DNA from: an uncultured Gemmatimonadaceae bacterium
GTDB lineage: Bacteria > Gemmatimonadota > Gemmatimonadetes > Gemmatimonadales > Gemmatimonadaceae
Assembly: GCA_963790305.1 (NCBI GenBank)
Contig: CAWBOC010000005.1
Span: forward strand, 608,001-672,000
Reading direction: 5' to 3'
Length of the DNA: 64,000 nt
Each line of letters opens with the position of its first letter. Within the stretch, counting starts at the first letter, position 1. Shown piece by piece: positions 13,692 through 15,630 of this stretch. The notes under the pieces are model-generated. The model searched no databases, was not told the origin of the DNA, and saw nothing but the letters and a program-made list of their open reading frames with translations. The position numbers and the translations under genes were made by a program.

Positions 13692-13782
13692 GCATGACCA
13701 CAGAGGCACTGAGGCACAGAGGACGGCAATCACCAAGCCGGTGGTTGCCGTCCTCTGTGCCTCAGCGCCTCTGTGGTTATGC
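13692..13782. repeat. Hairpin element family E (CACAGAGG arms)
   Basis: GCATGACCACAGAGGCAC...CCTCTGTGGTTATGC; contains the phhA stop codon. Confidence 0.9.
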
Positions 13783-14532
13783 CGTTGCGGTCCGGCGCTG
13801 ACGTACTTCCTCAACCGCCTCGAAGAGCTGATCGAACGAATCGACGACGAACAACACGTTCTGCAGTCGGTCGATGTCGAACGATTGGCTCATCACCGCA
13901 TCGACGTCGAACGGTCGCCGATCGCAATTCGGACCGAGCGCGTTCGCCGCATCGGCGTGCGACGAGATGAGCCCGCTGCCATAGATCCGGGTGCGCCCAC
14001 GTTCGCGAATGAGGCCGAACTCCACGGTGAACCAGAACAGCCGCGCCATGGCCACCGTCTGCTCCTCGGTCTCCGCGTGTGCCGCCAGCGCGCCGAACCT
14101 CTGGAGGAAATCGCCGAACACCGGGTCTGCGTGGAGCGGAACATGGCCGAAGACATTGTGGAAGATGTCCGGCTCCGGCAAGTAGTCGAGCTGCTCTCTC
14201 GGGCGGACCTTGAGCGTGGTCGGGAAGCGACGGCGCTCGAGGCATCGAAAGAACTGCGCTGCCGGGATGAAGCCGCTCACGCCCACGGCGGCCCATCCCG
14301 TACGCGCTGCCAGGCGCACGTTTACGTCCGCGAGATCAGGAACGCGATCCGACGAGAGCCCAATGCGCTCCATTCCGGATAGAAATGCCTCGCTCCCTGT
14401 GTCGACGAGCGTGGCCATCCTCCGCTCGTAGAGCAGTCGCCACACGGCGTGCGCCTCATCGTCGTACAGATCGTAGTCCTGGGCGGTGAATGGGGGCAGC
14501 TCCGCGGCGGGCGCGTCGGATGTGTCGAGCAT
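13777..14532 (-). CDS. phhA: Phenylalanine 4-hydroxylase
   Basis: GAGGA RBS; YLPEPDIFHNVFGHVP (two Fe-binding His), FWFTVEFGL (Fe-binding Glu), YGSGLISS; single-domain bacterial length. Confidence 0.93.
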   Translation of the reverse strand: MLDTSDAPAAELPPFTAQDYDLYDDEAHAVWRLLYERRMATLVDTGSEAFLSGMERIGLSSDRVPDLADVNVRLAARTGWAAVGVSGFIPAAQFFRCLERRRFPTTLKVRPREQLDYLPEPDIFHNVFGHVPLHADPVFGDFLQRFGALAAHAETEEQTVAMARLFWFTVEFGLIRERGRTRIYGSGLISSHADAANALGPNCDRRPFDVDAVMSQSFDIDRLQNVLFVVDSFDQLFEAVEEVRQRRTATA

Positions 14533-14551
14533 GAGTTCCTCGTACTCGGAG

Positions 14552-14588
14552 AAAACAAAAAGCGGCCCGTGGAATCTCCACGGGCCGC
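14552..14588 (-). terminator. Intrinsic terminator in the phhA 5' leader (attenuator)
   Basis: GCGGCCCGTGGA-GAT-TCCACGGGCCGC followed by TTTTTGTTTT, about 20 nt before the phhA start. Confidence 0.9.
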
Positions 14589-14614
14589 GGGCGAAACTGG
14601 CTGATCGCGAGCGC

Positions 14615-14701
14615 TTACACGCGCAAACGCCTGCCACCGCGTTCCGTGGGCCGGGACGCGTAGGGATAGTAGACAGCTGCGCGCAGGAAGGAGCTCACCA
14701 T
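14615..14701 (-). CDS. Putative Tyr-rich leader peptide (28 aa)
   Basis: MVSSFLRAAVYYPYASRPTERGGRRLRV*; codons TAC TAT CCC TAC; below the ORF-track size cutoff. Confidence 0.75.
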   Translation of the reverse strand: MVSSFLRAAVYYPYASRPTERGGRRLRV

Positions 14702-14707
14702 GCCAAC

Positions 14708-14736
14708 AGGGTATACGCCGGCTGTCATGAGGTCAA
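14708..14736 (-). promoter_or_regulatory. sigma70 promoter giving a leaderless leader-peptide mRNA
   Basis: TTGACC-N17-TACCCT-N6-ATG. Confidence 0.65.
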
Positions 14737-14823
14737 GCGGAGCGGCCGCGCAGCGGTTGCGCTTGCCAGCAGGGCGAGCGCGCTCTATTGTCGCCGTCCC
14801 ATTGTCGAAGGCTGAGCCGATCC

Positions 14824-15628
<805 letters not shown>

Positions 15629-15630
<2 letters not shown>

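Follow-up and report, generated by a model that had tools for sequence, protein, structure and literature searches.

A putative tyrosine-sensing leader-peptide attenuator upstream of phhA in Gemmatimonadota

What controls the phenylalanine hydroxylase gene phhA in an uncultured Gemmatimonadaceae bacterium, where a short tyrosine-rich open reading frame (ORF) and an intrinsic terminator stand directly before the gene? The locus lies on contig CAWBOC010000005.1 (positions 608,001 to 672,000), and by the window we mean this whole stretch of 64,000 nt; the attenuator region is on its minus strand, and positions are those of the whole stretch. Judging from the sequence and its relatives, the phhA leader is very probably a classical leader-peptide transcription attenuator that senses charged tRNA-Tyr. 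The leader is a real, conserved cis-regulatory element, and the point that decides against chance is its conservation in related genomes. Its parts are listed here in the order of transcription.

14731..14736, minus strand: -35 hexamer TTGACC, read in the sequence; 40 of 50 related leaders have a TTGnnn followed, after 16-19 nt, by a -10-like hexamer
14708..14713, minus strand: -10 hexamer TACCCT, with a 17-nt spacer from the -35 hexamer, ending 6 nt before the leader ATG
14615..14701, minus strand: leader ORF, 28 codons plus a TAA stop, MVSSFLRAAVYYPYASRPTERGGRRLRV, by translation; stop codon at 14617-14615
14660..14671, minus strand: regulatory codons TAC TAT CCC TAC, that is Y11, Y12, P13 and Y14 (TAC 14671, TAT 14668, TAC 14662)
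14652..14660, minus strand: segment 1, CGCGUCCCG, forming the 5' side of the local 1:2 hairpin and starting within the last Tyr codon
14636..14650, minus strand: segment 2, CCCACGGAACGCGGU, partner of either segment 1 or the terminator 5' arm, by folding and pair counts
14577..14590, minus strand: segment 3, the terminator 5' arm GCGGCCCGUGGA plus 2 nt upstream used in the antiterminator, by terminator scan, folding and pair counts
14562..14573, minus strand: segment 4, the terminator 3' arm UCCACGGGCCGC, by terminator scan; 95.8% of cells paired
14588-14577 and 14573-14562, minus strand: terminator hairpin by consensus scan, GCGGCCCGTGGA and TCCACGGGCCGC around the loop GAT
14552..14561, minus strand: T-run TTTTTGTTTT of the intrinsic terminator, by sequence and consensus scan
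14536..14541, minus strand: GAGGAA, likely phhA ribosome-binding site, outside the terminator hairpin, read in the sequence
13777..14532, minus strand: phhA, phenylalanine 4-monooxygenase, 251 aa, the predicted regulated gene (ATG at 14532), by family matches

By the equivalog cut-off of NCBIfam model NF008877, the window gene is annotated as phenylalanine 4-monooxygenase PhhA (296.4 bits, above the cut-off of 247). Its product also matches Biopterin_H (1.6e-42) and scores 254.8 bits against TIGR01267, just under the cut-off of 264.75. The intrinsic terminator is placed between the leader ORF and phhA, as classical attenuators require. The promoter TTGACC-N17-TACCCT ending 6 nt before the ATG, the 28-aa peptide containing YYPY, and a 12-bp terminator with a U-tract before the phhA ribosome-binding site had all been proposed in a preliminary description of this DNA. 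Each was recovered where it had been placed, the peptide by translation of 14701-14615 and the terminator by a consensus scan that finds a stem of 12 pairs, 10 of them G-C (-27.0 kcal/mol). The hairpin begins 26 nt past the leader stop codon. The TTGACC/TACCCT pair is not listed by the strict promoter rule of the same scan, TACCCT agreeing with TATAAT at three of six positions, and the promoter call therefore rests on conservation in 40 of the 50 related leaders. A leader transcript starting at or next to the ATG, as predicted here, would be a leaderless mRNA.

Clustering of Tyr codons to this degree would be rare by chance. At the genome's Tyr content of about 2.0%, three Tyr within any 4-residue window of a 28-aa peptide are expected about 7.5e-4 times. 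Across the genome, 670 terminator-like sites were scanned for the combination of promoter, immediate ATG, short ORF, and terminator, which gave 13 rows at 9 sites; among those 9, an amino-acid run before a biosynthetic gene occurs only at the phhA leader and at a his leader. As a separate observation, the genome's sites C9:131860-132007 (+) and C6:45233-45347 (+) have a promoter, an adjacent start codon, a short ORF, and a terminator, one of them preceding a putative methylglyoxal synthase gene (a reading of its N-terminus) and the other consisting of a Trp-rich ORF before an ABC-transporter ATPase gene.

How would such a leader work? The transcript would begin with the leader ATG or right beside it, and its 28-codon ORF would be translated by a ribosome, presumably through leaderless initiation. 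With Tyr-tRNA plentiful, the ribosome would reach the stop codon between segments 2 and 3; segment 2 would be held by segment 1 or otherwise kept from segment 3, and the 3:4 hairpin would form. RNA polymerase would then stop at the T-run before phhA. With Tyr-tRNA scarce, the ribosome would be expected to stall on YYPY and cover segment 1, and segment 2 could capture the terminator 5' arm once it is made, a kinetic competition by which the terminator would be blocked and phhA transcribed. PhhA would then make Tyr from Phe, the presumed physiological direction. In the absence of any translation, the 1:2 and 3:4 helices would form together and transcription would stop. In the window, segment 2 starts 9 nt after Y14, a spacing that would let a stalled ribosome cover segment 1 and not segment 2, assuming that a ribosome shields about 13-15 nt beyond its A site.

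Folding of the leader RNA gives the alternative pairings on which this model depends. The leader folds with z = -3.9 against 200 dinucleotide shuffles, none of the 200 folding as well, and when free it forms, besides the terminator, one long hairpin (14701-14598). Within this long hairpin the local 1:2 hairpin spans 14662-14636, where CGCGUCCCG pairs with CGG-A-ACGCG at -13.3 kcal/mol. It had also been pointed out that CCACGG-AA-CGCG (14649-14638) is complementary to CGCG-GC-CCGTGG (14589-14578), and this complementarity is real: segment 2 can pair with the terminator 5' arm plus two bases upstream. RNAduplex puts this 2:3 antiterminator duplex at -24.0 kcal/mol, with p = 0.02 when set against 200 shuffles; the terminator arms give -28.3. 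A stalled ribosome was modeled by masking -15 to +14 around each Tyr codon in a transcript ended at the terminator 5' arm. The lowest-energy fold of this masked transcript is the 2:3 antiterminator; in the unmasked transcript, segment 2 is kept in the leader hairpin and the terminator 5' arm is free. Folding both states had been suggested as a check; the terminator fold was obtained for the full-length leader and the antiterminator fold for the masked, shortened transcript.

Is the arrangement conserved? We surveyed 61 related genomes, 25 of which have a PhhA match. Thirteen loci (L001-L013) encode proteins 56-100% identical to the window PhhA and are treated as orthologous, 14 (L014-L027) encode paralogous proteins at 41-50% identity, and there are two fragments. 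The same design of promoter, ORF, and terminator, the promoter stopping only a few bases short of the ATG, lies upstream of 12 of the 13 orthologous loci; these ORFs have 23-33 codons and a Tyr cluster, and the terminator stem sequence is nearly identical among them. The leader is absent at L010 and at a partial second copy, L028. Neither inspection by eye nor a covariance model (R1) built from the 12 orthologous leaders finds a leader at any of the 14 paralogous loci. A scan of named genome records, covering 5 of the 64 parts of the collection, places the lineage in Gemmatimonadota, with the leader at 12 of 15 further phhA loci so labelled.

Outside the phylum the picture is different. In the same 5 parts of the collection, model R1 matches none of 64 phhA loci of other phyla, mainly Phycisphaerae, other Planctomycetota, and Acidobacteriota. 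A generic scan for Tyr- or aromatic-rich short ORFs flagged four of these 64 loci (L105, L108, L116, and L141), none of which resembles the leader design; the flagged ORFs at L116 and L141 overlap hairpin-plus-T sites. A contig labelled Thermoanaerobaculia (L077, 479-635) carries a Tyr cluster and a Gemmatimonadota-type terminator sequence before a phhA whose product is 58% identical, a pattern that might be explained by transfer between phyla or by mis-binning of the contig.

These comparisons bear on the simplest alternative, that the hairpin and T-run are only a constitutive partial terminator or an RNA stabilizer, the DNA being GC-rich and the ORF open by chance. Short frames are indeed common at about 65% G+C: a 6-kb stretch contains 96 ORFs that reach 20 aa or more. 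A chance frame would nevertheless have to account for an ORF, Tyr cluster, spacing, and alternative pairing that are kept across genera whose PhhA proteins are 56-81% identical, and that the same scan does not find at the 64 phhA loci of other phyla. We give this explanation next to no credence.

We compared 50 distinct leaders in one alignment (A5): 31 before phhA, 11 before DAHP synthase genes, two before chorismate mutase-tyrA, and six before hisG. The source genomes of two, L005 and L042, are flagged as unpublished; both leaders are included in the counts, and no claim hinges on them. The reading frame is open through the codon run in all 50. Aligning the phhA upstream regions had been proposed as a check on Tyr codons and stems, and it bears the proposal out: the Tyr cluster is found in each of the 31 phhA leaders collected, in peptides whose N-terminal sequences vary freely, and terminator/antiterminator pairing is kept across the 50. 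The trp/his/phe-type geometry ascribed to the locus is likewise present and conserved, the best complement to the terminator 5' arm starting 7-16 nt past the last regulatory codon in 29 of the 31 phhA leaders (the exceptions being L077 and L076). Median energies for the phhA leaders are -22.8 kcal/mol for the 2:3 duplex and -24.4 for the terminator, and the 2:3 pairing beats 95% of dinucleotide shuffles in 20 of 31.

Pairs were counted on the same alignment. For the terminator (3:4), 95.8% of cells are paired against 36-51% in slid controls, both partners have changed in 8 of 11 pairs, and none of 500 shuffles is as high. For the antiterminator (2:3) the figures are 87.1% paired, 29-41% in slid controls, and both-side changes in 4 of 10 pairs; for the 1:2 helix they are 65.9%, 31-46%, and 4 of 8 pairs. 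A -35/-10 pair ends 5-10 nt before the start codon, most commonly 6 or 7 nt, in 40 of the 50 leaders. Among the ten promoter-less leaders, three, all of them before phhA, have their ATG 3-6 nt downstream of a tRNA-Gly(CCC) gene (L038 1649-1721 (-), L064 432-504 (+), and L066 434-506 (+)), and there the mRNA 5' end might be made by tRNA 3' processing.

Which amino acid do these peptides single out? The phhA leaders hold 102 Tyr and 5 Phe among 852 residues, against a Tyr background of about 2.0% in the long ORFs of the window's own genome. DAHP synthase leaders contain 37 Tyr and 16 Phe in 298 residues, and hisG leaders 38 His in 155; a Fisher test on Phe versus Tyr overstates significance, as the sequences are related. 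The codon TAT makes up 51 of the 102 Tyr codons in phhA leaders versus 27% in the own genome's long ORFs, a rough comparison given that the leaders come from many genomes.

The leaders before other genes emerged when model R1 was run over 151 genomes of the phylum. Twenty-three genomes matched, and the 29 places examined comprise 8 before phhA, 11 before DAHP synthase, 2 before chorismate mutase plus prephenate dehydrogenase, 6 before hisG, and 2 weak matches that are not leaders. All 11 DAHP synthase loci (L056, L040, L057, L042, L043, L045, L047-L050, and L053) were confirmed by Pfam, the enzyme having a ferredoxin-like domain; of the hisG loci, two of the six were confirmed by Pfam and the other four judged by similar N-termini. 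The codon run follows the gene: Tyr before phhA, Tyr and Phe with some Trp before DAHP synthase, Tyr before the tyrA operons (L039 and L046, chorismate mutase plus prephenate dehydrogenase), and 5-7 His before hisG. In genome G096, a Tyr leader precedes phhA and another precedes the chorismate mutase-tyrA operon. The DAHP synthase and tyrA-operon leaders look, by their sequences, like undescribed aromatic attenuators of Gemmatimonadota.

The window's genome has a His leader of its own at G000:C5:587441-587592 (+) (L032 1501-1652), directly before hisG and hisD and about 20 kb before the window. It consists of TTGACG, 17 nt, TACCTT, 6 nt, and an ATG opening a 26-codon ORF with 5 His in 8 codons, followed by a terminator (GGCCCGTCC/GGACGGGCC), and it agrees with the phhA leader in promoter-to-ATG spacing and in terminator type. 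Model R1 found nothing below E = 0.06 at the own-genome loci of tyrA, prephenate dehydratase, and pterin dehydratase or at the paralogue loci.

The his, aro, and phh leaders share ACGGGCCG and a GGCCCGT core, which raises a second alternative: the terminator might be switched by an RNA-binding protein or small molecule acting on the leader RNA, with the Tyr codons incidental. The segments show unusually high sequence conservation, as expected for a binding site, and translation of the leader is itself a prediction from sequence. A shared site would not explain why the codon run alone changes with the downstream gene, nor would a switch of this kind account for an ATG at a fixed distance from the -10 hexamer in 40 of 50 leaders or for a frame open through the run in 50 of 50. 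No Rfam family matches the region, the best E value being 0.15 and far below the gathering score. We consider a protein or ligand switch unlikely, with a small chance of being right.

A third alternative takes the peptide itself as the active part, either through a TnaC-like arrest with free Tyr, so that phhA would be induced by excess Tyr, or in trans. TnaC, as a nascent peptide, arrests the ribosome in this way with tryptophan. In many leaders the sequence Ala-Thr-Arg-x-Thr-Gly-Arg recurs after the Tyr cluster, as a functional peptide might require; the codons of this motif fall on segments 1 and 2. The first codon of segment 2 encodes different residues in different leaders (Thr, Met, Pro, Ala, or Ser), yet its second and third positions, which pair, are kept, so the constraint lies on the RNA rather than on the peptide. 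The same motif also follows the His runs of hisG leaders and is thus not Tyr-specific. Inducing a Tyr-making enzyme at Tyr excess would be without evident logic, and the search of the own genome (94% complete) gave no gene for homogentisate dioxygenase, on which the usual breakdown route depends. An action of the peptide by its own sequence seems to us very improbable.

For the attenuator, a biosynthetic role of PhhA, as the preliminary description had it, gains support because relatives place like Tyr-rich leaders before DAHP synthase and chorismate mutase-tyrA. That the phhA leaders are Tyr-rich and Phe-poor (102 against 5 of 852) fits this logic, because inducing a Phe-consuming enzyme on Phe shortage makes no sense. 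If the attenuator is as proposed, phhA would be marked as biosynthetic rather than catabolic, which would change its annotation in Gemmatimonadota. The paralogous, unattenuated phhA has a 4-hydroxyphenylpyruvate dioxygenase gene directly downstream in 4 of 14 loci (L014, L017, L020, and L026), which is a catabolic arrangement, and two genomes (G011 and G048) carry both phhA types. A fumarylacetoacetase upstream of some paralogues, guessed from a C-terminal motif, was dropped, those ORFs giving no Pfam family.

Does the host need a second route to Tyr? It had been suggested that the genome be checked for a lack of tyrA. That possibility is rejected, as a TyrA-family gene scores above the Pfam cut-off, its product matching prephenate dehydrogenase models over the full length at 1e-36, below the equivalog cut-offs. 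With this gene present, PhhA here would be an extra Tyr route and not the sole one. The genome also encodes a prephenate dehydratase and a pterin-4a-carbinolamine dehydratase (cofactor recycling). No type II DAHP synthase was found in this 94% complete genome, and its sole type I-beta DAHP synthase homologue (G000:C9:178669-179719 (+)), which directly follows another gene and has no leader, is split over two frames near 179360. The split may stem from an assembly or sequencing error, or the first step of aromatic synthesis may be broken; in the latter case, Tyr made from imported Phe would matter more.

Among relatives, Pfam PDH_N finds TyrA in 5 of 12 that bear the leader. This survey misses the chorismate mutase-prephenate dehydrogenase fusion of G040, found by a protein-level scan, and a profile from three TyrA proteins of the lineage adds a full-length match in G034 and a doubtful one in G005. 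In G011, G013, G028, G047, and G048 (90-100% complete), both surveys give only weak Rossmann-type matches or none; these absences are soft, a control genome without phhA (G038) likewise having no full-length TyrA.

Several points weigh against a Tyr-sensing attenuator. The need for a second Tyr route is not obvious, since the own genome keeps a TyrA-family gene. In full-length folds the terminator always wins at equilibrium, even with a stalled ribosome, so the switch is assumed to be kinetic, as in known attenuators. Translation would end 18 nt past segment 2, at a stop codon ahead of segment 3, and a terminating ribosome would therefore not cover segment 2, unlike in the E. coli trp leader; at plentiful Tyr, antitermination would presumably be prevented by segment 2 being held by segment 1 or otherwise kept from segment 3. 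Eleven of 31 phhA leaders fail p <= 0.05 against shuffles. The 1:2 helix is weak in the comparison, with a conserved mismatch that 43 of 50 sequences carry and with compensatory pairs not in excess, and covariation in the antiterminator is modest because its segments are nearly invariant. The tested structures were taken from one aligned sequence, which favors them, and the sequences are related, so that the shuffle counts overstate support. The leader is also not universal, missing at L010, L063, L068, and L072, and L077 has no antiterminator at the usual place.

How new would such an element be? The mechanism is textbook; its Tyr version on phhA seems not to be in print. Textbook leader-peptide attenuators cover Trp, Phe, His, Thr, Leu, and Ile/Val, and in Firmicutes the usual RNA control of Tyr genes is the T-box riboswitch. 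A Tyr-codon attenuator would fill a gap in the known amino-acid set. An Rfam cmscan of 14300-15000 at E <= 10 returned three chance-level matches, with no leader family and no T-box among them. The preliminary description knew of no Tyr-leader attenuator on phhA, and we too found no Tyr-codon leader and no phhA attenuator in the literature searched, which includes few subscription journals. Leader-peptide attenuation following the Yanofsky model is established (PMC11802643; PMC1183508), and Tyr genes are usually under TyrR-type proteins or T-boxes (PMC1262725), as far as the accessible parts of these sources go.

The enterobacterial attenuators (trpL-trpEDCBA, pheL-pheA, hisL, thrL, leuL, and ilvL) resemble the phhA leader in having a short ORF with clustered codons for the end product, four segments with mutually exclusive 1:2 plus 3:4 versus 2:3 pairing (the 1:2 helix being putative in the phhA leader), and an intrinsic terminator before the first structural gene. 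They are induced on a shortage of the charged tRNA, and the same is proposed here. Unlike them, the phhA leader carries Tyr codons and precedes a hydroxylase gene instead of a chorismate-pathway gene. Its ORF would stand at the transcript 5' end and has no Shine-Dalgarno sequence, its stop codon follows segment 2 instead of lying between segments 1 and 2, it has no sequence or structure match to Rfam leader families, and its host phylum is Gemmatimonadota.

The nearest described case, within the accessible text of the sources, is the Corynebacterium glutamicum aroR leader (Phe-Tyr-Phe) before aroF, a DAHP synthase gene, reported as a ribosome-mediated attenuator (PMC11802643, citing Neshat et al. 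2014). It is closest to the Tyr/Phe leaders before DAHP synthase in relatives. Transcription of aroF is described there as responding to Phe limitation and unaffected by Tyr availability (PMC11802643); unlike aroR as so described, the phhA leaders have Tyr codons with almost no Phe codons, and they would control phhA. In mycobacteria, leaderless polycysteine short ORFs act as Cys-responsive attenuators of operon genes, according to the part of the report available (bioRxiv 10.1101/834739). They are similar to the phhA leader in the leaderless mRNA and in a short first ORF with a run of a single amino acid, and differ in amino acid and phylum.

A different control of phhA is described for Pseudomonas aeruginosa, where the catabolic phhABC operon is governed by PhhR, a TyrR-family, sigma-54-dependent activator encoded divergently from phhA (PMC1173090, in its accessible portion); the preliminary description's statement that Pseudomonas phhA is under PhhR agrees with this source. 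Unlike that system, the divergent gene here encodes polyphosphate kinase 2 (PPK2), control would be by an RNA leader, and the proposed logic is biosynthetic. Attenuators upstream of tyrA operons have been predicted for several bacteria in the Merino database (Table 7, PMC1173090). In the portion of that source available, these predictions are structure-only, with no mention of Tyr-codon leader peptides and none on phhA or in Gemmatimonadota.

Could the phhA leader be one member of a larger family? We raise, tentatively and with appreciable doubt, the idea of one lineage-specific leaderless framework in Gemmatimonadota (promoter, ATG, codon run, ACGGGCCG, and GGCCCGT hairpin) that is re-used by swapping the codon run, with His for hisG, Tyr/Phe for DAHP synthase, and Tyr for tyrA and phhA. 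Where no TyrA was found (5 of 12 leader-bearing relatives), the attenuated PhhA would, on this same tentative idea, be the main or only Tyr source, under tRNA-Tyr control. Animals, too, make Tyr from Phe. A shared framework with differing codon runs would be a clean natural example of a change in attenuator specificity, and could supply a simple regulatory part for Gemmatimonadota, a common and little-studied soil phylum.

What surrounds the leader and its gene? In the window phhA is monocistronic, and the next gene converges on it. On the other side lies the following gene.

14788..15630, plus strand: divergent polyphosphate kinase 2 (PPK2), start codon uncertain (PPK2 match 2.8e-75)

Since this upstream neighbor is divergent, the terminator ends no upstream gene. 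A divergently transcribed phhR beside phhA is absent, PPK2 standing there instead; no sigma-54 promoter search was made. Upstream sequences at some loci contain short repeats: tandem GGGACTA-like heptamers lie about 150-250 nt before the leader ATG at L012, upstream of the promoter, and a run of TAGTCAC units before the paralogous phhA at L016 resembles them. In the window, a promoter-like TTGCCA-17 nt-TATTGT (14763-14791 (+)) overlaps a 10-bp hairpin (14758-14782) and points toward the divergent PPK2 gene; this site and the leader promoter stand back to back.

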